Program-made: the position numbers and the translations under genes
Part shown: piece after piece, positions 12,189 through 35,127 of the stretch
How positions within the stretch are numbered: the first letter of the stretch is position 1
How the letters are laid out: each line of letters opens with the position of its first letter
Notes under the pieces: generated by a model
Databases searched by the model: none
What the model saw: the letters and a program-made list of their open reading frames with translations, nothing else
What the model was told of the DNA's origin: nothing
From: Thermofilaceae archaeon
Lineage (GTDB): Archaea; Thermoproteota; Thermoprotei; Thermofilales; Thermofilaceae
Reading direction: 5' to 3'
Length of the DNA: 42,808 nucleotides
NCBI GenBank assembly: GCA_038727095.1
Contig: JAVYWK010000017.1
Location: 1-42,808 of the forward strand

Positions 12189-13774
12189 GGTGGGTAGTTC
12201 TCCCCCTGCTCCTCTTTGTAATTGTTTCGCGGGGCACGGCATCGGGCGGTGAAGCGGCGATACGCATCCTCCCGGACGGCACGGTTGAGCCTCCCGGCGC
12301 GCCCATCAAGCGGGTGGGGGACGTCTACACGCTGCTGGAGGATGTCAGCGTGACCGGCGATGGAGTGCTCGTGATGAGGAGCGGCGCGGTGCTCGACGGT
12401 AACTGGAGGGTGCTGCAGGGTAACGGCTCTGGCAGGGGCGTGATCGTGAGAGCTCCGAACGTGACTGTGAAAAACCTGGTGGTTCGCGGCTTTGAGTACG
12501 GCGTATACGCTAGCGATGCCCCCGGCTGCTCGGTGCATAGCGTAGCGGTGGAGGGCGGCAGAGTGGGAATCGGCCTGTGGAGGTCGCCGGGCTGCACCGC
12601 CGCGAGCAACAGAGTCAGGTGGAGCATGGTGGGTCTCCACGTCGAGGAGTCCAGCAACTCCACAGTCATGGGGAACGCGTTCGAGGGGTGCGGCCTGTAC
12701 GTCAGGAGATCCTACGGCAACAAGGTGGAGAACAACACTGTGAACGGGAGGCCGCTCGTCTACCTGGAGGCTGCGAGCGGGGTTCAGGTCGGGGGGGCTG
12801 TCGGGCAGGTAATCCTCCTGCGCTGCGCGAACACCACCGTTAGCGTGAGCGCTGCACGGAGCACGGTGGGCGTGCTCATCTCGGAGTGCCGAGGCGCCGA
12901 GGTGGTCGACTGCGATTTGAGCGGCAACGTGGTGGGCATCGATGTCTGGGGGAGCAGTGGTGTTGCTATCCTGAGCTGCAGGGTGGCTGAGGGCGAGGTG
13001 GGAGTCAGAGTGCTCAACTCGAGTGGTGTCGTACTGCTGGGCTCAGCGCTGGGCGGCAGCAGCTTCTGCGTGTACGTGGATTCGAGCGGGGGAGTGGTCG
13101 TGGCGAACTCGACGGTCAAGGAGTGCTCACAGGCAGCAATCACCCTGAAGCGGTCTACTGGCTCCCTAGTAGGCAACATGGTGGCAGCGAGCGCGCGGGG
13201 CATCGTGCTGCAGGGATCGGAGGGGGTCAACGTGGAGGGGAACGCGATTTGGCGCAACGGGGCTGGCGTCGTGATTAACGAAACGCGGGGGTGCACGTTC
13301 ACTCGTAACGAGTTCGTCGAAAACGCCGTCCAGGTCGTCCTCCAAGCTGCGGGACCCAACACCTGGCAAGGCAACTTCTGGAGCGACCTGTGGGAGAGGG
13401 GCGTCACGCAGGGACCCTACGCGCTGGGTTCGGGGAACGTGGACGAAAGCCCTGCAACCGCCCCCTCTCGGGTGCTGCCCGTGAGGGTTGTAACGCCGGT
13501 CGGTTACGCCACAGGCTCGGGCTGGTACGAGAGGGGCAGCACCGCTAGAATCGGCGTTTGGCCTAGCAACCTACTGGTAGTACGCTTCCGCCAGTGGGTG
13601 GATCAAAGGGGGAGAGTGGTCGCCCATAACCCCATAGCTGAAGTGGTAGTGGACGAGCCGCTAGTGCTGAGCGCCGTCTGGTCGCTAGACCCCTCTTCAG
13701 CACTCATCATACTCTCTTCGATCTTAGCTCTAGCGATGCTTAGACGCCGGCTCCGCAGGCTCGAGGCGCATTAG
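12176..13774 (+). CDS. Secreted right-handed beta-helix (NosD/CASH-like) surface protein with C-terminal membrane anchor
   Basis: Signal peptide; IRILPDGTVEP; repeated G-I-x-L...S-S-N-x-T-V-x-x-N beta-helix turns; NTVNGRPLVYL; GNFWSD; GSGWY small beta domain; TM helix followed by RRRLRR. Confidence 0.85.
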   Translation: MWKLRWVVLPLLLFVIVSRGTASGGEAAIRILPDGTVEPPGAPIKRVGDVYTLLEDVSVTGDGVLVMRSGAVLDGNWRVLQGNGSGRGVIVRAPNVTVKNLVVRGFEYGVYASDAPGCSVHSVAVEGGRVGIGLWRSPGCTAASNRVRWSMVGLHVEESSNSTVMGNAFEGCGLYVRRSYGNKVENNTVNGRPLVYLEAASGVQVGGAVGQVILLRCANTTVSVSAARSTVGVLISECRGAEVVDCDLSGNVVGIDVWGSSGVAILSCRVAEGEVGVRVLNSSGVVLLGSALGGSSFCVYVDSSGGVVVANSTVKECSQAAITLKRSTGSLVGNMVAASARGIVLQGSEGVNVEGNAIWRNGAGVVINETRGCTFTRNEFVENAVQVVLQAAGPNTWQGNFWSDLWERGVTQGPYALGSGNVDESPATAPSRVLPVRVVTPVGYATGSGWYERGSTARIGVWPSNLLVVRFRQWVDQRGRVVAHNPIAEVVVDEPLVLSAVWSLDPSSALIILSSILALAMLRRRLRRLEAH

Positions 13775-25814: not shown

Positions 25815-27206
25815 ATGATCTTCGTCGATAGGGAGAGCGAGCTGGGGGTGCTGGAGCAGGCCTACTCGAGCGGCCGGAGCGAGCTGGTGGTGATCTACGG
25901 GAGGCGGAGGATAGGGAAGACGTTCCTCCTCTCCCTCTTCCTCAAGCGGAAGGGTGGGGTCTACCTGTGCGTCAACCACGAGGAGAGGGACCTGGCGTTG
26001 AGGGATCTCGCCGAGCAGCTGTCAGAGCAAGCGGTGCTACCTTACCCTCCGAAGCTGGAGAGCTTCAGGGATCTCTACGAGGTGCTGGCCTCCCTGAACG
26101 TCAGGCTCATCGTCATCGACGAGTTCCAGCGGCTTCTGAAGGCGGGCGGTTTGACGGAGCTGCAGCACGCCTGGGACGCGAGGCTCTCGAGGAGCAACGT
26201 GCTGCTCGTGCTCTCGGGCTCAGCCGTCGGGGTCGCTGAGAGAGTCGCCACCTCACCCTCCTCCCCCATCTTCGGCAGGGCAACGAGGGTGGTGAAGCTG
26301 GGAGAGCTCAGCTACTCAGCCGTGAGAGCCTTCCTCCCCAGCTACAGCGAGGAGGACAGGGTGAGGAGCTACGCCGTCTTCGGAGGAGTGCCGGGCTACC
26401 TGTCCCGCCTCTCCCCGAACCGAACCCTTCTGGAGAACGTTGAGGAGCTCGTGCTCAAGCCGGGGGCGCCACTAAGGGAGGAGCCGCTCATCCTGCTCAA
26501 GCTGGAGCTGCGCAACCCCTCCAGGTACGCTGAGATCCTCCGGGCGGTCGCGGAGGGGGCGACCCAGTTCGGCGAGATCGCCGATAGGGCGGGGTTGAAG
26601 GTGGTGGAGCTCCCGAAGTACCTGAGGGTGCTCGAGGAAGACTTGAACCTCATCGAGAGGAGGTACCCTCTCCTCGAGGAGGGTAGGAGGGGTAGGGCCC
26701 GCTACCACCTCCGAGACCACTTCACTCGCTTCTGGTTCAAAGCGGTCTACCCCAACAGGGTCCTACTGGAGCTAGGCCTCTACGACCGTGTCTCCCAGCA
26801 GCTACCCCCTCTCATCGACCAGCTGGCGGCGCAAGCCTTCGAAGAAGTGGCGCACCAGCACTTCGCCCTACTGGCGAGGAGGGGCCTAGTGAGCTTCACT
26901 CGGGTCGGGAGGTGGTGGATGGGCGATGTGGAGATCGACCTCGTCGCCGTAGACGAGAGGGGCTCGACGGCGTACTTCGGGGGGGTGAAGTGGTCGAAAA
27001 CACCCCTCGATAAGCGCGTGCTCTACAAGCTGGAGGAGAAGGCGGAGGAGTTCGCCTGGAGGAGGGGGGAGAGGAGGGAGGTCTACGTGCTCTACAGCAG
27101 AGCCGGCTTCACGTTCCAGCCCGAGGAGGGCGTGCACCTCTACTCGCTGGAGGACATCTCCAGAGACTTCGAGGCGGAGAAGCCGAGCATCACCGTGCTC
27201 GGTTAG
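25815..27206 (+). CDS. Archaeal AAA ATPase with wHTH and C-terminal DUF234 (PD-(D/E)xK-like) domain
   Basis: FVDRESEL, Walker A GRRRIGKT, Walker B IVIDEFQ, GGVPGYL, DHFTRFWF, GRWW...EIDLVA...VKW. Confidence 0.9.
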   Translation: MIFVDRESELGVLEQAYSSGRSELVVIYGRRRIGKTFLLSLFLKRKGGVYLCVNHEERDLALRDLAEQLSEQAVLPYPPKLESFRDLYEVLASLNVRLIVIDEFQRLLKAGGLTELQHAWDARLSRSNVLLVLSGSAVGVAERVATSPSSPIFGRATRVVKLGELSYSAVRAFLPSYSEEDRVRSYAVFGGVPGYLSRLSPNRTLLENVEELVLKPGAPLREEPLILLKLELRNPSRYAEILRAVAEGATQFGEIADRAGLKVVELPKYLRVLEEDLNLIERRYPLLEEGRRGRARYHLRDHFTRFWFKAVYPNRVLLELGLYDRVSQQLPPLIDQLAAQAFEEVAHQHFALLARRGLVSFTRVGRWWMGDVEIDLVAVDERGSTAYFGGVKWSKTPLDKRVLYKLEEKAEEFAWRRGERREVYVLYSRAGFTFQPEEGVHLYSLEDISRDFEAEKPSITVLG

Positions 27207-27225: not shown

Positions 27226-29352
27226 CTACCCGCTGCAGCCCCACGCTCTAAACTCGAAGCTCCGGACCCCCTTGAAGCCGACGTAGCTCGGAGCGGTGAG
27301 GGGCGCGCACGAGTACCGCGCGAGTATACCGCCGGAGCTATCGCGCAGGATCGCCTCCCAAGCTCCGCTCAGCAGCCTCAAGTCAACCCAGTAGGCGCCC
27401 GGATAGCTGCCCAGCAGAACCTCGCTCCCCCCGCACCTAGCGTAGTACGCAGTCCCGCTCCGCCTCACGCCGAAAACGGGGTTCAAGCCTCCGTCGAAGA
27501 AGTAGAAACCCCCGTCACCCGAGAGGTTGCCAACGTACACGGTTGCGTCGGGCACAAGGCTCCGGTAGTACGTGTCGCCGCTCACGCGCCAACCCTCCGG
27601 GAGCGGCGTACAAGCGTAGTAGGTGGCGGAGAAATCATCCCACCACATCCAGAAGTCGTCGCTCGTGCATGGAGCATTGTAGCTGGCGTCAGTGGCGGCG
27701 AAGGCGACGTTCAGCACCACTCCCTGCTGGTTCGAGGGGATGCTCCCGCTCCACGTGTACGCCACTCCCGAGGTCATGGAGCCGAGGTTGTACACCTTGA
27801 AGGAGGGGCTTGCGGGTGTGCACGACCCATCGCTTCCCACTGTGCAGATGACTGCGCCCGGGCTGACGTGCACTGAAACAATGACGCCAGCGGCACCCGC
27901 CGTATCGTACCGGTAGAAGATGTACTCCACGTCCGCGAACCCATCGCCGTTGGAATCAACGCCGACCGAAACGTAAGCTACGTTGTTCCTCATATCCGTC
28001 GCGTTCCTAAGGTAGAGGCCCTGCACCGTGAAGGAGAAACCCGCCGCAGGAACAGCACCCCAGCGTGTCACATCGTAGACCGCGGCCGCGACTCCGTAGT
28101 CCTGGGCGGGGTTACCCGTCCCACCGTAAGCGTCAACCTCTGTCGCCACGCTCGGCGGCGACGAGGGGCTGAGCGCCGGGTCCACGTAGACCAGCGTGTG
28201 CTCACCCCCTCTAACGTAAGCACCCAAGTAGGAGGGGGGTGCGCACCTCGTGAAGCTGACGTTATCCCACCAGATCTTAGCGACACCCTTAGGGGAGTAG
28301 GCCGTGAAAGCTAAACCTACAACATAGCCCGTAGAATACACTTGACTGATCGTGATCGTGTACCAATAGTTTGGGCTGTTCACAAAGCCGGGTAGAGAGC
28401 GAACTATCGTGGGTAAACTACGCCCGTAGATGACAGAAGCCATCGCGTAGGGAGATGTACCGCGGCCGCTTCCGTAGTAGATCGCCTCAACATCGGGAAC
28501 ACGGTCTCCGTTTAGGTCGATGAAGAAGTGCACCTGCAAGTAATCATCATCCCCGAGAGAGGCTCTGAAGAAGTACTGGAAGCTGAATCCAGCGCTGGCG
28601 CTAAAAGGCTGAGAGGAGTAGTTAATGAAGAAGGAAGCGTAGCCGTTTTTCGATTCAGTGTATAAACTCGGGCTCGGGCTCCCCTGGGTAGGATCGATGC
28701 CAACGCTTCCGCCCGAGCGTGGAGTAACGTACGTCCTGTTGTCTGGTATGCTTTCGGCGAACGTGTACTGGACGGGCACGCAGGCCCCAGTGAAGTCGTC
28801 GCTTCTCGTGTACAGGGTACAGCTGTAGCTCGCGCTGCTCAGCAGAGTCATCGGCTTCGCGGTGAAGTTGACGTACTGCTTCACCTTCACGCTATCGACT
28901 GTGAAGCGGGCCGTGGTGAGCACCCAGTACCCGCTCGAAGCGGTGGTCCACCAGGAGAGAGCGGCTGGCAGCTGGACAGGCGAGCCGCAAACCTGCGTGT
29001 CGGATACCTGGAGCTGGCCGCCGAGGTAGATCCGGTAGCCCGCCACACCCACCTGCTCCTCGCGGCACAAGCTCGCCGACAAACCGGGAATCCTCCGGTC
29101 CAGCGCGCCGACATCGTACCTCTCCTCCCAGCCGGGGATGAAGCAGAGGCTGTAGCGCGTCACGTTCAACCCGTTGTACACGTACCAGCCCGAGCTCGAG
29201 ACAGGAGAGATGGAGGAGTTCCCCAGCTTAACGAGAGGGCTCTCCATAGCCACGATCCTCCACTCGGTGATGTTCGTAATCGTGACCGCTGCCCACGCAG
29301 AGACCGCGAAGGCCAGAGCCAAGGCCAGCGGAAGTCTCTTCACGCTAGCCAC
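27226..29352 (-). CDS. Large secreted protein, putative minor pilin / tip adhesin
   Basis: Signal peptide, then AVTITNITEWRI (shared with the 30786-31376 protein); two tandem beta-rich repeats, each with a D-x-N-G-D-x-x-x-D motif; several Cys; no C-terminal TM helix. Confidence 0.6.
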   Translation of the reverse strand: MASVKRLPLALALAFAVSAWAAVTITNITEWRIVAMESPLVKLGNSSISPVSSSGWYVYNGLNVTRYSLCFIPGWEERYDVGALDRRIPGLSASLCREEQVGVAGYRIYLGGQLQVSDTQVCGSPVQLPAALSWWTTASSGYWVLTTARFTVDSVKVKQYVNFTAKPMTLLSSASYSCTLYTRSDDFTGACVPVQYTFAESIPDNRTYVTPRSGGSVGIDPTQGSPSPSLYTESKNGYASFFINYSSQPFSASAGFSFQYFFRASLGDDDYLQVHFFIDLNGDRVPDVEAIYYGSGRGTSPYAMASVIYGRSLPTIVRSLPGFVNSPNYWYTITISQVYSTGYVVGLAFTAYSPKGVAKIWWDNVSFTRCAPPSYLGAYVRGGEHTLVYVDPALSPSSPPSVATEVDAYGGTGNPAQDYGVAAAVYDVTRWGAVPAAGFSFTVQGLYLRNATDMRNNVAYVSVGVDSNGDGFADVEYIFYRYDTAGAAGVIVSVHVSPGAVICTVGSDGSCTPASPSFKVYNLGSMTSGVAYTWSGSIPSNQQGVVLNVAFAATDASYNAPCTSDDFWMWWDDFSATYYACTPLPEGWRVSGDTYYRSLVPDATVYVGNLSGDGGFYFFDGGLNPVFGVRRSGTAYYARCGGSEVLLGSYPGAYWVDLRLLSGAWEAILRDSSGGILARYSCAPLTAPSYVGFKGVRSFEFRAWGCSG

Positions 29353-30721
29353 CAGGGAAGCTGGACAGCCTACTCCTCACGCTCCTAACGCTGCCCAACT
29401 CACCCCACTTGAAGAGGAGTGTGAAGTAGCCGAACCTGTGGTCGCCGGGCTGCCAGTAGTTCTCGCAGAGCTTCACACCCCAAGGCTCCAGCCTCAGCGG
29501 CAGAATATTGCAAGTGGTTCCGCAAACCAGCTCCACGTTCACGTTCTCAGCCTCGATGAGGGGTGCAGCCCAGTCGAGCACGATGCCACGCCTGATCGTC
29601 TTCGGCCAGTACTCAACCTGCGTCACGTTCAAGTTCAAACCCCAAACCATCAGGAATGCCTCCACCACGTAGCCCGAGAGACCGCTCGTGTTGAACGCCG
29701 CGATGGCACGCACAGGGCCCACCGCCACGGGCCTCCAAGCGCCCCAATCACTGTAGTACTCCAGCCGGACCTGGTACGGGAACGCGATCCTCCCCGATAA
29801 ATTCACGTAAAGGCCGGGCGCCGCGAAGCCATACTCGTTCAGTTCGACGCTAAGCCCCCTAACCTTGATAACCCCCCGCTCCACCGTGCCGGCAGCCTCA
29901 AACTGCTCCTCCAGCCTCCCCCCGAAGTACACGTCGATCCTCGTCCCGTTTGAAACGTAAGCGGCGAACACCAGCCGATCGTATGGGCCCACGCTCCCCC
30001 TTCTCAAACCCTTCGGCTCAACTACCCCATCAGCTCTTCTCTCCCAAGCTTCCACCTGGAAAGGCAGCAGGAAGTTTGCATCGCCCTTCACGTACACGAC
30101 AGCCAGCATGCTGGCATCAACACCCTGCAGAGCGTGAACCCTCCCCACGTAAGCACCGTTTACGTAAACATCCCCGGAGCCGAGCACCTCAAACAGCGCT
30201 AATCCCTCCCTCTCAGCTGTGAAGGTTAGCGAAAGACGGCGAGAGAACCGGTTATCCCACCAATCCGTCTCAACCACCCTTATACGCACAACAGCCTCAG
30301 TCGCCTCCCTGTACCGTAAATCAAACAAGCGCAGCATAAGCTCGCTCGGCGAAGGAGCCCTCAAGCAGACGCTCAACCTAGCCGATGACCCGGGAGCAAG
30401 CTTCAACGGACTGGAAACGTTAGGCCCCAGTATCACAGCATTCCCGCTCCTTAAGGAAAAGTACAGCGGCATCCCCACAAGGCTCGCTTCGAGCTCGTAA
30501 GAGAGACCAGCAGCGCCCAAGTTCCTCACCTCCACCACCTCTTCATAGCAAAACACTCTCCCCCTAGATGCGTAGAGAGTCATCTCAGTAGGCTCCACTG
30601 ACACGTCCCTTACCCCACCCGTGATCACTGCTTGAAGCCCAAGAGGATACAGAAAAGTAAGCGTAAGAAAAACAAGAATCGCCAACAAGGCAAAGACCGT
30701 GTAAACAATCTTACGGCGCAT
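29345..30721 (-). CDS. Membrane-anchored extracellular beta-rich protein, putative pilus accessory/anchor
   Basis: Basic N-terminus plus one TM helix, an Ig-like segment (VEVRNLG...LAPGSSARLSVCL), and a WWDNRFSRRLSLT motif reminiscent of DUF2341-type N-termini. 8-bp overlap with the downstream gene. Confidence 0.55.
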   Translation of the reverse strand: MRRKIVYTVFALLAILVFLTLTFLYPLGLQAVITGGVRDVSVEPTEMTLYASRGRVFCYEEVVEVRNLGAAGLSYELEASLVGMPLYFSLRSGNAVILGPNVSSPLKLAPGSSARLSVCLRAPSPSELMLRLFDLRYREATEAVVRIRVVETDWWDNRFSRRLSLTFTAEREGLALFEVLGSGDVYVNGAYVGRVHALQGVDASMLAVVYVKGDANFLLPFQVEAWERRADGVVEPKGLRRGSVGPYDRLVFAAYVSNGTRIDVYFGGRLEEQFEAAGTVERGVIKVRGLSVELNEYGFAAPGLYVNLSGRIAFPYQVRLEYYSDWGAWRPVAVGPVRAIAAFNTSGLSGYVVEAFLMVWGLNLNVTQVEYWPKTIRRGIVLDWAAPLIEAENVNVELVCGTTCNILPLRLEPWGVKLCENYWQPGDHRFGYFTLLFKWGELGSVRSVRSRLSSFPGG

Positions 30722-30740
30722 CCTTTACACCCATTGTAAT

Positions 30741-30766
30741 AGAAACAAAAAAGAATGAAATTTAAA
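30741..30766 (-). terminator. T-rich terminator/attenuator after the putative major pilin
   Basis: The minus strand reads TTTAAATTTCATTCTTTTTTGTTTCT between the pilin stop and the next start. Confidence 0.5.
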
Positions 30767-30785
30767 CCCGCTGCTAGCCTTGCTC

Positions 30786-31376
30786 CTAAGGAGGCGGCGG
30801 ATTAGTTACGGAAACAACGTCTATCTGCAACCTGATCAGCTCCACACCATCATCAGCATCTGGGTGAATGAGGATTTCAGCAGACACCGACAAGCATTGT
30901 TCGGGGTCAATACTTATCGGGTCGGATGGTATTGGAGTATCTATTTGAGTGTTCTGATCGATTTGATAACCACCAGAAGGTTCACCGCCAAGCGAGAGTT
31001 TAACGTACTTAACTTTGTCTGGCCAAGTGCCTCCATTCAATAGACCCTTATACACCAGCTGGACTTTATAAGATCTACTATCGCGGTTGCAAATTCGTAT
31101 AACTTCTGTGTAGTTTGTTGGGTCGCCCTTAAAACCGGTCAATGTAATAATCGTCCTATTGGTGAAATCGTCTTTTGTCTCTGTAGTTACACCTGTATTT
31201 ATGTAGTTGCTAGTGATCATATCACTGCCTTTCTCCTTCTTAATCGGTGCAGGCTTAGCTTGTATGCTCCACTCTGTGATGTTAGTGATGGTGATGGCTG
31301 CGGTTGCGAAGCTGGCTATGGCTAGCAGTATTAGGAGTGCTGCTGCCCCGCTTAATCTTCTCTCTCCCCCGTCCAC
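30786..31376 (-). CDS. Putative major pilin, archaeal bundling pilus (AbpA/TasA-like)
   Basis: Class I signal peptide ending FATA, mature protein about 170 aa, N-terminal strand AITITNITEWSI, motif GFKGDPTNYTEVIRICN, two Cys. Resembles Pyrobaculum AbpA as I recall it (not verified by search). TTTATAAA promoter at 31399-31406. Confidence 0.65.
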   Translation of the reverse strand: MDGGERRLSGAAALLILLAIASFATAAITITNITEWSIQAKPAPIKKEKGSDMITSNYINTGVTTETKDDFTNRTIITLTGFKGDPTNYTEVIRICNRDSRSYKVQLVYKGLLNGGTWPDKVKYVKLSLGGEPSGGYQIDQNTQIDTPIPSDPISIDPEQCLSVSAEILIHPDADDGVELIRLQIDVVSVTNPPPP

Positions 31377-31514
31377 GCTGTAGGTTGCTTTTCGATCCTT
31401 TATAAATTTAATAGTTCGGAATGGGGCTTGCCCTACGCTTTCAACGTCGCCGTTCTCCGGGCTTCCAGCCGTGAGGGGTTGCTGTGGGGTTTGCTTGCCC
31501 AGTGCACGTAGTGT

Positions 31515-32234
31515 TCACGTTTTCCCCGTGGCTTGCCGGGGCGTGCCCGTGGGCGGGGTTTGCATTCCGGCTGGGTAGTAGCAGTGGTACCTGCCGAGCT
31601 TTACGCACTCGACGAGGCCGAGCCTCTCGAGTACGCTTAAGTGCCACTGGACTTCCCCGTAGCTGATCCCGGTCTCCCTGGCGATCCTCCTCATGGAGGC
31701 TCCGGGGTTGGACTTGATGTACTCGAGGATCTTGACGCGCTTCGGGCTTCTAGCGACGTCGCTGCGCTTCGTCACGTAGTAGGCCACCGGGACCGAGAGG
31801 GTGGAGAACAGCTTCCCCCTCCCGCCCTCGGAGAGCGCTAGGTAGCTTGCGGCGGCCGCCGCGACTGCGGCTGCGAGCAGGATGAGCGGCGGCTCGTTCT
31901 GGGGCTGCGGTTCAACCGCTTCCACTGTGACAGCGATTCTGATGGTTCTCAACGTCGGGTTATCAGCCGTGAGAGCGATGCAGCCGCCCTGCAGCACCGC
32001 TGTACCCCGCTGGACCTCCACGCTCCTGACGGTAGCCCCTTGGAGGCAGGCCAGCTTCTCGCCCTGGAGCCTCGCGAGAGGCGGTATCTCAACCGTGATG
32101 GTGTACGTTATATTATGGTCTGCTCTCAGCTCCCCGACTTCAACTACCGCCGCGCTAGTCACGGTCAGCCTCGGCTGGGCTAAAGCCACCAACGCTAGCG
32201 CGAGTGCGGCGAGCGGTGCAGCAAGCTTCCGCAT
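31515..32234 (-). CDS. Membrane-anchored winged-helix transcriptional regulator with extracellular beta domain
   Basis: Signal peptide, about 90-aa beta-rich domain with two Cys, TM helix, then RVKILEYIKSNPGASMRRIARETGISYGEVQWHLSVLERLGLV (ArsR-like wHTH). Confidence 0.8.
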   Translation of the reverse strand: MRKLAAPLAALALALVALAQPRLTVTSAAVVEVGELRADHNITYTITVEIPPLARLQGEKLACLQGATVRSVEVQRGTAVLQGGCIALTADNPTLRTIRIAVTVEAVEPQPQNEPPLILLAAAVAAAAASYLALSEGGRGKLFSTLSVPVAYYVTKRSDVARSPKRVKILEYIKSNPGASMRRIARETGISYGEVQWHLSVLERLGLVECVKLGRYHCYYPAGMQTPPTGTPRQATGKT

Positions 32235-32319
32235 AAGCTCTACTGCGCCTCTCCGTCCGGGTTTAAAAGGTTCAGTTGAACTAAAAAGGTTTTTTACCTT
32301 TTGCTTCTCTAACTCCTGT

Positions 32320-32682
32320 ATGCTGGTTCCCCTACTGGCGGGTTTTACGGCTTCGCTCGCAGCTTTGACGCTAAGGCTGTTGAGGGGTAAGCCCGACTGG
32401 AGGGGTGAGGTCTACCAGTTGTCCCTGGCGCTGGTGTTGGCGTTTATCGACGCCTTCATGATCGCCTACCTGGCACCCTTCACGCCGATCTTCGTGGCTC
32501 GCCTCTCCTTCCACCTCTTCCTCTACACGCTCTTCGCGAGCTTAACGGCGGTGCTGTACGCCATGTACAGGGCGTCGAGTGACATCAGGGTTTACGCGGT
32601 TGCGATGACCCCCTGGTTCCTCATCCTCGCGCTGATCGTCGCGGCCAACCTGCTCGGCTCGAGGATCGTCTTCATCTTCTAG
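32320..32682 (+). CDS. Hypothetical 4-TM membrane protein (120 aa)
   Basis: In-frame ATG 32320 (MLVPLLAGFTASL...) with TTTTTA at about 32290-32296. The upstream part of the track ORF is antisense to the wHTH gene. Confidence 0.7.
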   Translation: MLVPLLAGFTASLAALTLRLLRGKPDWRGEVYQLSLALVLAFIDAFMIAYLAPFTPIFVARLSFHLFLYTLFASLTAVLYAMYRASSDIRVYAVAMTPWFLILALIVAANLLGSRIVFIF

Positions 32683-33756: not shown

Positions 33757-35127
33757 GTGGTGCACTGGCTCCGCCTAGCGGCTCTCGCGGCTGCAGTCGT
33801 TCTCTTGTTTACTCTACCCAGGCGGCCCCTCTTCCTGGAGGTTTACGGGAGGCGTGAAGCGCTGGAGGCGGCGAGTCTGGTCGAGTCTGCGCTCGGCCCC
33901 GCGCAGAGAGTCGTCTTCTTCGAGGTGAACCCGGTGAGCGTCTGCGCAGCCTGGCTGGAGGGGTCCTTGAGCCTGGAGGGCTTTTGGGGGAAGGAGTGGG
34001 TGGTGAGGGGTTACCGGGGGGCGGGCCTCGTCTATGAGCTGAGGGTGGACGCGGGGATGGGTTTCAGCATGCTGCGGGTCAACCTCACGCTCGTGGAGCG
34101 CGCTCAGGCGTTGATGGCCGCGCTGATGCTGCTGCGGCGCGAGGGAGGTGGCGTCTTCCAGGTGGAGGATGAGGGAGCCCTGTTTTCCGTGAGCGCTTGG
34201 CGGCCGGAGGAGGGGGTGTGCAGGGGTATCGTGAGGGAGGCGGAGCAGTGGAGGGGGGCTACGATCATCACGTGGGTGGTGATGCAGGTCGTGTTCCTCA
34301 CAGGCCTCCTCCTGGCCGTGGCGTTGCCGACCGGCGGCGTGAGTAAGCGTAGGCTGCTCCTTATCTCGCTACCCCTCCTCCTGGCGCTCGGAGCGTCCTC
34401 AACCCTCCTCCAGCTCCCCTACCTGCTCGGGAAGAACGCGCTGCCCCCAACCCTGAGGTCCCTGTTCAACCTCCTCTACAGCAGCGCCCTCCTCTCCCTA
34501 ACCGCCCTGATCTCGCTCATCGCCGGCGCAGCGTTGGTGGCGAAGAGCGCCCCGCTGTCCCTCCCCACGGGGAGGCGAGCTGCCGAGAGCTGGCTGGACG
34601 GGGTCGCCACGGGTGCAACCCTCACGGCTCTTCTCGGGGTTGCGTTCACGCTGCTGGAGAAGTGGGGTCGCGTCATCCCGCTGAAGCTGCCGGCCCTCGA
34701 GAACGCTCTCACGGTGCAAGCGTCGTGGCTCGCCGCGGCGCTGAACGTGGCCGTAGCCTCCCTAATCAACGCAGTCACCTTCCGCTACCTGCTCCTCCTC
34801 CTGCTGCAGGAGGTGCTCGGGGGGAGGGGGCAGGGGGTTGTGGCGACCTCGGCCATATACGCTCTGGCGTTTGCGGGGGCTTCCTTCCACCCGCCGTACA
34901 CCGACGTTCTCGCTGCGCTAGCCCTGTCGCTGGTCTTCTGCCTCCTCTACCTCTGGAGGGGCCTCTTCGCCGCTGTCGCCGCCGAGTACACCTACAACGC
35001 ACTGGCCTACGCGCTGTCAATCTCCGGTCTCCTGCCGGTTGACGCGCTTCTCCTTGCGGTAACCCCACTCTCCGCCGCCCCCCTAGCCTCCCTGCTGGCC
35101 GAGCTGGCCCGAAGGTTCGCGAGTTAA
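33757..35127 (+). CDS. Multi-pass membrane protein, degenerate CPBP/CAAX-protease-like C-terminal domain
   Basis: N-terminal extracytoplasmic region, then about 8 TM helices. SLINAVTFRY, SAIYALAF and GLFAAVAAEYTYN align with CPBP motifs but lack EE and His. Confidence 0.55.
   Translation: MVHWLRLAALAAAVVLLFTLPRRPLFLEVYGRREALEAASLVESALGPAQRVVFFEVNPVSVCAAWLEGSLSLEGFWGKEWVVRGYRGAGLVYELRVDAGMGFSMLRVNLTLVERAQALMAALMLLRREGGGVFQVEDEGALFSVSAWRPEEGVCRGIVREAEQWRGATIITWVVMQVVFLTGLLLAVALPTGGVSKRRLLLISLPLLLALGASSTLLQLPYLLGKNALPPTLRSLFNLLYSSALLSLTALISLIAGAALVAKSAPLSLPTGRRAAESWLDGVATGATLTALLGVAFTLLEKWGRVIPLKLPALENALTVQASWLAAALNVAVASLINAVTFRYLLLLLLQEVLGGRGQGVVATSAIYALAFAGASFHPPYTDVLAALALSLVFCLLYLWRGLFAAVAAEYTYNALAYALSISGLLPVDALLLAVTPLSAAPLASLLAELARRFAS

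Follow-up and report, generated by a model that had tools for sequence, protein, structure and literature searches.

The four minus-strand open reading frames (ORFs) of 239, 196, 458 and 708 amino acids (aa) found in the ORF list between positions 27226 and 32234 of the window (here, the whole 42,808-nucleotide stretch that was analysed, with 62% G+C, which is contig C17, JAVYWK010000017.1, of a 1.86-Mb, 52-contig, 92% complete genome) almost certainly form the locus for an archaeal bundling pilus (ABP) in an uncultured Thermofilaceae archaeon. The largest of their products begins with nearly the same donor strand as the major pilin, AbpA, and continues with an AbpA-like pilin domain. The ABP system is already described (Wang et al. 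2022; PMC9245690) and its architecture is not new; the claim of a previous sequence-only reading of this DNA, that the full architecture was undescribed, is not supported, as the 708-aa protein is, by alignment, an orthologue of Pcal_0904 of the Pyrobaculum calidifontis operon presented in that paper, and layouts with regulator, pilin, tip and anchor have also been proposed for the Tafi and AbpX loci considered below. Its central proposal, a donor-strand pilus locus of the AbpA/TasA type, was upheld. The 2022 description did not settle how these chaperone-free fibres begin, are capped or become anchored (PMC9245690). The evidence gathered here points to a conserved five-gene core with one large protein bearing the docking strand of the pilin, and it makes the 708-aa protein a concrete candidate, open to test, for the part that starts or caps a TasA-related archaeal biofilm fibre and for its adhesive end.

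When the 196-aa protein was searched against the PDB with phmmer, one solved structure was matched, 7UEG_A (E 4.7e-17; query residues 15-193 against chain residues 13-204), which corresponds to the bundling pilin AbpA of P. calidifontis (PMC9245690). The GF.GDPTNYT...C motif, assigned to AbpA in the sequence-only reading, is indeed present in the AbpA of 7UEG. The predicted signal peptide comprises residues 1-26, with a hydrophobic segment at 6-34 (hydrophobicity scan), and the alignment placed the mature start at A27, equivalent to T25 of 7UEG, the first residue visible in the cryo-electron microscopy (cryo-EM) map, where AbpA cleavage is seen (PMC9245690). The donor strand covers residues 27-47 (nt 31236-31298). 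In 7UEG the N-terminal strand of each AbpA fills the groove of the next subunit (PMC9245690), and homology shows the window AbpA to be a Sec-exported major pilin, predicted to polymerise in the same way, by insertion of its N-terminal strand into the groove of a neighbour. Two of the three sites glycosylated in P. calidifontis AbpA have an aligned sequon in the window protein, N73 for N78 and N88 for N93; the position of N37 reads Q-A-K there, and another strand sequon, N32 (NIT), is present. Extra density in the P. calidifontis map was taken as a glycan on a donor-strand Asn (PMC9245690). A search of the whole genome for the Pfam TasA/camelysin family (PF12389) returned nothing at E ≤ 1, and the Pfam scan of the pilin did not show it either, in agreement with Wang et al., where AbpA and TasA are linked only through profile and structure comparison (PMC9245690). 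Pfam and NCBIfam contained no family for the pilin, for AbpB or for the 708-aa protein, nor for their P. calidifontis-type counterparts. A divergent AbpA-like paralogue of 174 aa, with 28% identity by BLASTP and 30% in the genome search, was observed on contig C34 of G000 (L034:7694-8218, minus strand; G and L numbers are our handles for genomes and loci). It lacks the canonical donor-strand motif and lies beside glycoside-hydrolase-like and DUF362-like genes, outside any ABP operon; this type is the sole AbpA-like match in G001 and G002, and an additional one in G003.

That the 196- and 708-aa proteins start with nearly the same strand, as the sequence-only reading had noticed, was borne out by BLASTP (15 of 24 residues identical, E 7e-6), nothing significant being found past the 24 residues that follow the signal peptide. 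Each protein also retrieved the N-terminus of the other when the whole 1.86-Mb genome was searched in six frames (E 9.8e-5 and 5.2e-4). At the DNA level 44 of 72 nt are identical and the same codon is used for 7 of the 15 identical residues, so the likeness reflects selection at the protein level, and recent gene conversion or DNA copying as its source was ruled out by codon usage. When the 14 positions surrounding the invariant Asn are compared within a genome, its AbpA and its third protein are identical at 5-11 of them in 14 of 15 genomes (the 1/14 of the fifteenth, G109, comes from a one-residue anchoring slip), and over the remainder of the pilin domain their identity is 15-28% in the 15 genomes. 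Both proteins also carry the signature of their lineage, ..NITEW..A in Thermofilaceae and ..N.T.W..NAT in Thermoproteaceae. A strand pairing only with its own diverged groove would be expected to diverge along with it; as the strand has been kept far better than the rest of the domain, we infer that it still has to fit the groove of AbpA.

The relationship extends beyond the strand when profiles are compared. Alignments were built from the first ~210-234 residues of eight third-gene proteins (A3), from ten AbpA-type proteins (A1) and from 25 sequences (A4), and hhalign of A3 against A1 gave 98.8% (E 6.3e-17) over 153 columns, as far as the end of the pilin domain. The second, NxT-containing strand that had been claimed as common to both proteins falls in register in this profile-profile alignment, N73 of the pilin corresponding to N63 of the 708-aa protein. 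The single 708-aa sequence had no match in the PDB; 7UEG was the sole significant match of the A3 profile (E 9.6e-11) and the only one of the 25-sequence full-length profile (E 7.9e-5). Against 1.84 billion representative proteins, A3 produced 50 matches at E ≤ 1e-3, comprising 20 proteins of at least 375 aa, in which the match was mostly N-terminal, 23 of pilin size (150-262 aa) and 7 fragments. The 708-aa protein can be laid out as a predicted signal peptide (residues 1-21), an AbpA-type donor strand (22-42, nt 29227-29289) within an AbpA-like pilin domain reaching approximately residue 155 (nt 28888-29289), and then about 550 residues of other domains. Its N-terminus aligns with the A-x-A cleavage context of AbpA, and its hydrophobic stretch (residues 6-29) is no longer than that of AbpA, that of AbpB being longer (3-34). 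The second GTG, at 29343, is the more likely start, giving 705 aa, because it has GGTGG 6 nt upstream and the ESM Atlas record begins at residue 4.

The identity of the 708-aa protein was established by comparison with G093, used as the reference operon, whose pilin ORF matches 7UEG over residues 1-204 (E 2.3e-131) and is followed by ORFs of 410, 136, 123, 249, 219 (winged helix-turn-helix, wHTH), 754 and 174 aa. The 708-aa protein aligns end to end with the 754-aa ORF (33% identity, 758 columns, E 5e-72) and its counterparts in four other Thermoproteaceae loci are 33-37% identical to it; at the sequence level it is the orthologue of Pcal_0904. Its 31 named database homologues, from Thermofilaceae, Thermofilum, Infirmifilum, Thermoproteus and Pyrobaculum, are all annotated as 'hypothetical protein'. 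The ~550 residues outside the pilin-like domain are predicted to be beta-rich. They include two related beta-domains, detected as an internal repeat (17/45 identical, E 1e-4) with cores at residues 253-293 (nt 28474-28596) and 436-480 (nt 27913-28047). Both contain an Asp-rich D.NGD...D.E loop, and its Asp and Glu positions vary little or not at all across 25 sequences. A conserved C-terminal domain comes last. Among ESM Atlas features, the best scores (0.81-0.84) were below the meaningful level, and the carbohydrate-binding and jelly-roll families that appear among them provide a weak lead only.

The distribution of these genes was then surveyed in 120 genomes of the class. The AbpA profile matched 36 of them (11 of 22 Thermofilaceae plus the window's own genome, 22 of 29 Thermoproteaceae and two weak matches elsewhere) and the third-gene profile 35 (9 of 22 Thermofilaceae plus its own and 25 of 29 Thermoproteaceae), some of the weakest Thermofilaceae rows of the latter being cross-matches to AbpA itself. 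The third-gene family occurs in 21 of the 22 Thermoproteaceae genomes with an AbpA match. Co-occurrence of the genes in relatives was confirmed, since abpA, then abpB, then a third gene with an AbpA-like N-terminal domain were found in all nine Thermofilaceae genomes with a canonical abpA; in G004 the contig ends inside abpA, and G001 and G002 have the divergent paralogue type only. The third protein is of about 700 aa in five genomes (the window's, G020, G018, G003 and G022, where it is split over two contigs), and elsewhere measures 656 (G019), 528 (G017), about 430 (G015 and G010) or 298 aa (the Thermoproteus-like G109).

The body of the third protein differs among relatives. In G017 it consists of DUF2341 (E 3.9e-22) and a ConA-like region (L029:10476-12062), and the gene is followed by a 75-aa ORF (12333-12560), which is 61% identical to the C-terminal end of the 708-aa type and looks like what is left of an ancestral body that was replaced or broken. 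G015 has a second short copy of the third gene (L030:7696-9051), about 70 kb from its ABP locus, with neither abpA nor abpB beside it and with match statistics equal to those of the copy at the locus. Large paralogues (1174-1224 aa) are also found in Pyrobaculum genomes outside the ABP operon, among them one at L081:2277-5801 (minus strand) in G093, with similar ORFs of 1175-1224 aa in G094, G095 and G101. The L081 protein has an N-terminal transmembrane (TM) segment, approximately 480 extra residues, a pilin-like domain without the N-terminal strand and then C-terminal domains like those of the third protein; anchored in the membrane, it could serve to accept a strand.

The product of the second large gene, the 458-aa protein, carries the long N-terminal hydrophobic segment mentioned above, followed by an invariant P..Q A...G...D stretch. 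An hhalign comparison of 18 Thermofilaceae orthologues, which bear Thermofilaceae-type names wherever named, with four Thermoproteaceae AbpB ORFs, among them the 410-aa ORF adjoining the 7UEG-identical pilin, gave 92.9% (E 3.7e-7) over 224 columns, and on this alignment the protein is a distant homologue of the TapA-like AbpB. Neither its single sequence nor its profile matched a PDB chain (best profile E 1.3), and a relationship to the 708-aa protein or to AbpA was rejected (hhalign 1.5% and 5.5%, respectively). The long hydrophobic N-terminus and the invariant juxtamembrane residues suggest that AbpB is the likelier membrane anchor. In Bacillus subtilis, the first five residues of TapA nearly copy those of TasA, and TapA starts filaments by strand donation (Roske et al. 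2023, PMC10151520). This hallmark of the TapA initiator, a mature N-terminus that copies the donor strand of the pilin, is present in the 708-aa protein and conserved in 15 genomes, and the N-terminus of AbpB shows no likeness to AbpA (hhalign 5.5%). By this criterion the functional TapA analogue of ABP loci would be the Pcal_0904 family rather than AbpB, which suggests that the role may have been assigned to the wrong gene.

We propose that the 708-aa protein, made in small amounts together with AbpB, would be cleaved after its signal peptide at a position equivalent to that of AbpA, and that its N-terminal strand would then dock into the acceptor groove of an AbpA subunit. Docked in this way, the protein would sit at a filament end exposing a free groove, where it would start or cap the filament, as TapA does for TasA and as has been proposed for Saci_0405. 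Its variable C-terminal body would be the exposed part, probably adhesive or sugar-binding, as the adhesin-like pattern of variable C-terminal modules among third genes suggests; AbpB would more likely be the membrane anchor, and the regulator would act through a GAACTA element beside TATA boxes. That the 708-aa protein joins AbpA filaments by strand donation seems to us reasonably probable, and its placement at the distal tip or as initiator, rather than as a proximal cap, is offered tentatively, at somewhat less than even confidence. A wider combination of these ideas is doubtful as a whole: the Pcal_0904 family, and not AbpB, would be the true TapA-like initiator as well as the tip, its AbpA-mimicking strand triggering chaperone-free polymerisation; it would be made stoichiometrically with AbpB through translational coupling; swappable lectin-like or Ca-binding heads would set adhesion; and the regulator, through its ectodomain, would link what happens at the cell surface to a GAACTA operator specific to the locus.

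Several observations weigh against this proposal. No same-genome co-variation of the strands was found, cognate and non-cognate pairs sharing 8.38 versus 7.66 and 5.86 versus 5.90 of the 14 positions; identity across families was 4.09 and 5.71 of 14, and asymmetric; what co-variation there is comes down to a single lineage contrast, not to fine co-evolution. The strand is weakly kept (5/14) in G018, G093 and G116. The 32 metatranscriptome reads described below are too thin to compare the levels of abpA and the downstream genes. Moreover, Wang et al. read the N-terminus of Pcal_0904 as transmembrane (PMC9245690), and if uncleaved the strand would be held at the membrane. With either polarity of the filament relative to the cell conceivable, tip and base are indistinguishable.

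The absence of same-genome specificity also speaks for a rival view, in which the 708-aa protein is a separate surface or matrix protein, self-polymerising or bound to the envelope, kin to AbpA but never part of its filaments. Its complete pilin-like domain makes self-polymerisation conceivable, and both the large Pyrobaculum paralogues outside the ABP operon and the second G015 copy far from the locus fit such an independent existence. We nevertheless consider this unlikely, as the strand has remained similar to that of AbpA although identity over the rest of the domain has fallen to 15-28%, every canonical locus keeps the third gene in tight linkage with abpA and abpB and coupled to the latter, and the out-of-operon L081 paralogue has no N-terminal strand. 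A quite improbable arrangement reverses the roles, with the 708-aa protein staying at the membrane, by a retained N-terminal hydrophobic segment or otherwise, as a cell-proximal nucleator or terminator and AbpB acting as a chaperone-like or distal factor: an N-terminal TM segment was predicted for Pcal_0904 (PMC9245690), both polarities are open for a strand-only cap (PMC9715654) and TapA has been reported to be membrane-associated (PMC10151520), but the A-x-A context is shared with AbpA, whose cleavage shows in the cryo-EM map, and it is AbpB, not the 708-aa protein, whose hydrophobic stretch exceeds that of the pilin. Finally, the shared N-terminal stretch might be a signal for export, processing or glycosylation, combining a signal-peptidase site with an N-x-T sequon, instead of a docking strand. 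It does lie directly after the signal peptide, its invariant Asn is in N-x-T/S context in most sequences, and glycan-like density was seen on a donor-strand Asn of AbpA (PMC9245690). This is, however, very improbable, since the homology spans some 150 residues of the pilin domain, well beyond the first 20, AbpB is exported from the same locus without such a stretch, and in 7UEG the same segment is the inserted donor strand (PMC9245690).

The features of the locus are collected in Table 1. The four co-oriented genes lie where the sequence-only reading had placed them, all on the minus strand, and the 120-aa membrane protein gene, divergent from the regulator gene, is an addition to it.

Table 1. 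Features of the ABP locus, with positions in the window and the basis for each assignment.
Feature	Position	Strand	Basis
Small membrane protein, 120 aa, ~4 hydrophobic segments	32320..32682	+	Hydrophobicity scan
Inverted repeat GTTCA-nn-TGAAC, candidate operator	32270..32281	.	Sequence reading
Membrane-tethered wHTH regulator, 239 aa	31515..32234	-	Pfam HTH_24, TM and Cys positions
abpA promoter: GAACTA element and TATA box TTTATAAA	31399..31417	-	Sequence reading, motif counts
abpA, major bundling pilin, 196 aa	30786..31376	-	phmmer against PDB
abpA-abpB spacer, 64 nt	30722..30785	-	Sequence reading
abpB, TapA-like accessory protein, 458 aa	29345..30721	-	hhalign, gene position
Third gene, Pcal_0904 orthologue, 708 aa	27226..29352	-	BLASTP, hhalign, PDB profile search

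All four proteins had been taken as exported, and N-terminal hydrophobic segments were indeed found; the 239-aa regulator, however, is not a simple exported protein but a membrane protein with a cytoplasmic wHTH. It matched Pfam HTH_24 (E 4.2e-11) and has a signal-like N-terminus, an ectodomain of approximately 95 aa with two Cys, a TM segment at residues 115-136 and the winged helix at 160-225. This architecture and an invariant VQWHL..LER recognition-helix motif were found in 12 of 12 aligned orthologues from both families, and the protein is, as far as the alignments indicate, the counterpart of Pcal_0905. The window regulator lacks a C-terminal tail of about 50 residues present in 6 of the 7 other aligned Thermofilaceae orthologues, and no remnant of it was seen in other frames (31515-31560 region). 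Of the 8 other Thermofilaceae loci, 4 have an orthologue of the 120-aa protein (52-65% identity) encoded beside the regulator. Against Thermoproteaceae 4-TM ORFs it aligned over its full length with 30-32% identity (E 2e-11 to 1e-9) without composition correction, and with correction reached only E 0.047 against the G093 ORF, so that it is probably, though not firmly, a counterpart of the Pcal_0907-type 4-TM protein.

The P. calidifontis ABP operon has eight genes: abpA (Pcal_0910), abpB (Pcal_0909; 410 aa, TapA-like by AlphaFold), two 4-TM genes (Pcal_0908 and Pcal_0907), a GTPase, the wHTH gene Pcal_0905, Pcal_0904, described as a single N-terminal TM domain plus a large ectodomain rich in beta-strands, and Pcal_0903 (PMC9245690). 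The window locus resembles it in having homologues of the pilin, AbpB, the regulator, the Pcal_0904-type protein and probably a 4-TM protein, and in having no dedicated signal peptidase. The order is different, with the 4-TM gene divergent from regulator-abpA-abpB-third gene in the window, whereas the P. calidifontis type reads abpA-abpB-4TM-4TM-(GTPase)-regulator-Pcal_0904-Pcal_0903; in addition, the window has a single 4-TM gene and lacks both a GTPase and a counterpart of Pcal_0903. By sequence comparison, the set common to Thermofilaceae and Thermoproteaceae loci would thus comprise four genes, probably five, in different order, where the main text of Wang et al. gave only abpA and abpB as common to the two orders (PMC9245690). 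In the literature covered we found no mention that the Pcal_0904 family has a pilin domain and a donor strand, or that it is conserved across both orders, and none of the candidate operator; supplementary Figs S3 and S4 of Wang et al. (2022), outside the scope of this comparison, may show Thermofilales gene maps and the topology of Pcal_0904. As the sequence-only reading had noted for SipW-like peptidases, no signal peptidase gene is present in the window, and the sole TIGR02228 match of the genome is on contig C21.

Other fibres built by strand donation offer closer or looser parallels. With TasA-TapA-SipW the locus shares a major subunit polymerising by N-terminal strand donation and an accessory protein, rare in B. 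subtilis, that nearly copies the N-terminus of the pilin, although that TapA hallmark belongs in the window to the 708-aa protein and not to AbpB. It differs in the absence of SipW and of any genome-wide PF12389 match, and in that TapA contains a complete Ig domain, the 708-aa protein having instead a pilin-like domain with ~550 further residues; Bohning et al. 2022 (PMC9674648) is a further reference for the B. subtilis system. In Sulfolobus acidocaldarius threads, the pilin-like Saci_0405 carries an N-terminal donor strand and is a putative cap, for which capping or nucleation at the distal or the proximal end has been proposed (Gaines et al. 2022, PMC9715654). By their descriptions, the two loci are alike in encoding a pilin-like minor protein with a donor strand beside the major pilin (Saci_0406 in the thread), but Saci_0405 is pilin-sized and has no Sec signal; a signal peptide and a bulky additional body set the 708-aa protein apart. 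The Tafi system, the Tat-fimbriae of haloarchaea, comprises TafA/TafE pilins, the tip TafC, the anchor TafF, the regulator TafB and the peptidase TafD (PMC12337348), and the tip and minor subunits of AbpX loci are predicted to co-assemble by strand complementation (bioRxiv 10.64898/2026.01.04.697558). These TasA-superfamily loci follow the same logic of regulator, major pilin, tip and anchor, their tip proteins being compared here by description; unlike the window locus they encode dedicated signal peptidases, and Tafi use Tat export. A FimH-type tip adhesin fuses a pilin domain to a receptor-binding body and joins the fibre by strand complementation, and the pilin domain of FimH is C-terminal and accepts a strand, having none to donate. 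Chaperone-usher pili are an analogy to the 708-aa protein and not homologues; there is no chaperone or usher here, the corresponding Pfam families being absent from the eight proteins scanned around the locus, and the host is a monoderm archaeon.

The abpA gene has a strong predicted promoter of its own, in which a GAACTA element is joined to the TATA box TTTATAAA, 22 nt before the GTG start, and the abpA mRNA is probably leaderless. This composite motif occurs once in the whole genome; the looser GAACTAWWAA occurs 8 times in the 1.86 Mb, 2 of them within the pilus locus. The composite precedes abpA in 8 of 9 Thermofilaceae loci, the ninth having TAACTA. In five complete relatives 6 of 9 genome-wide matches fell inside ABP loci, and a reversed-pattern control gave 0. 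The remaining three lie in a repeat region in one genome and before an MscS-like gene in two; in the latter the GAACTAAAA+TATA motif precedes a small membrane channel gene (L078 ~546-1194 in G015 and L080 ~531-1178 in G010), which may belong to the same regulon as the ABP locus. Between the divergent regulator and 4-TM genes, each half of the inverted repeat GTTCA-nn-TGAAC (element region to 32287) faces a TATA-like box. As sequence motifs, the GAACTA element and this repeat are candidate operators of the wHTH regulator and, with the membrane-bound regulator, would offer a starting point for understanding what turns on archaeal biofilm fibres.

The T-tract that the sequence-only reading saw between the small gene and the two larger ones is a T6 run at 30747-30752, and 9 of 9 Thermofilaceae loci have a run of at least five T in this spacer. 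In archaea, transcription is terminated by oligo-T runs; as a TATA-like TTTAAA (30761-30766) stands beside the run, the spacer, which also contains GGTG at 30728-30731, 6 nt before the ATG of abpB, may be a terminator, a promoter or both. A copy of the GAACTA+TATA promoter is present in this spacer in 4 of 9 loci, the window not among them. In 6 of 8 loci, abpB either overlaps its downstream neighbour, the third gene, or directly adjoins it (-11 to +2 nt), with TAGCGTG as the stop/start in the window. RNA evidence came from metatranscriptome run X4, from a hot spring, with 32 reads of a relative; runs X2 and X3, with 0 reads, constitute no test, and X1 provided contigs only, which inform about neither level nor strand. 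First mates of X4 were plus over the minus-strand genes and minus over the 4-TM gene, as expected of a stranded library, indicating at best that the locus of this relative is transcribed in the predicted orientations.

Neighbouring genes were considered as further parts of the system and discarded. The CAAX/CPBP protease (33757-35127), a PUA protein and a tRNA endonuclease have no counterpart near the locus of any relative. The protease gene lies on the plus strand, two genes off the locus; its product, a homologue of CPBP/CAAX-type intramembrane proteases (Pfam Rce1-like, E 3.5e-5), has an extracytoplasmic domain at its N-terminus, and given its lack of synteny in relatives it is probably unrelated to the pilus locus. 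The archaeal ATPase gene (ATPase_2 and DUF234; 25815-27206, plus strand), convergent with the third gene, was set aside as it adjoins the locus only in the closest relative, G020 (93% identity), and nowhere else. In G093, similar ATPase genes lie beyond Pcal_0903.

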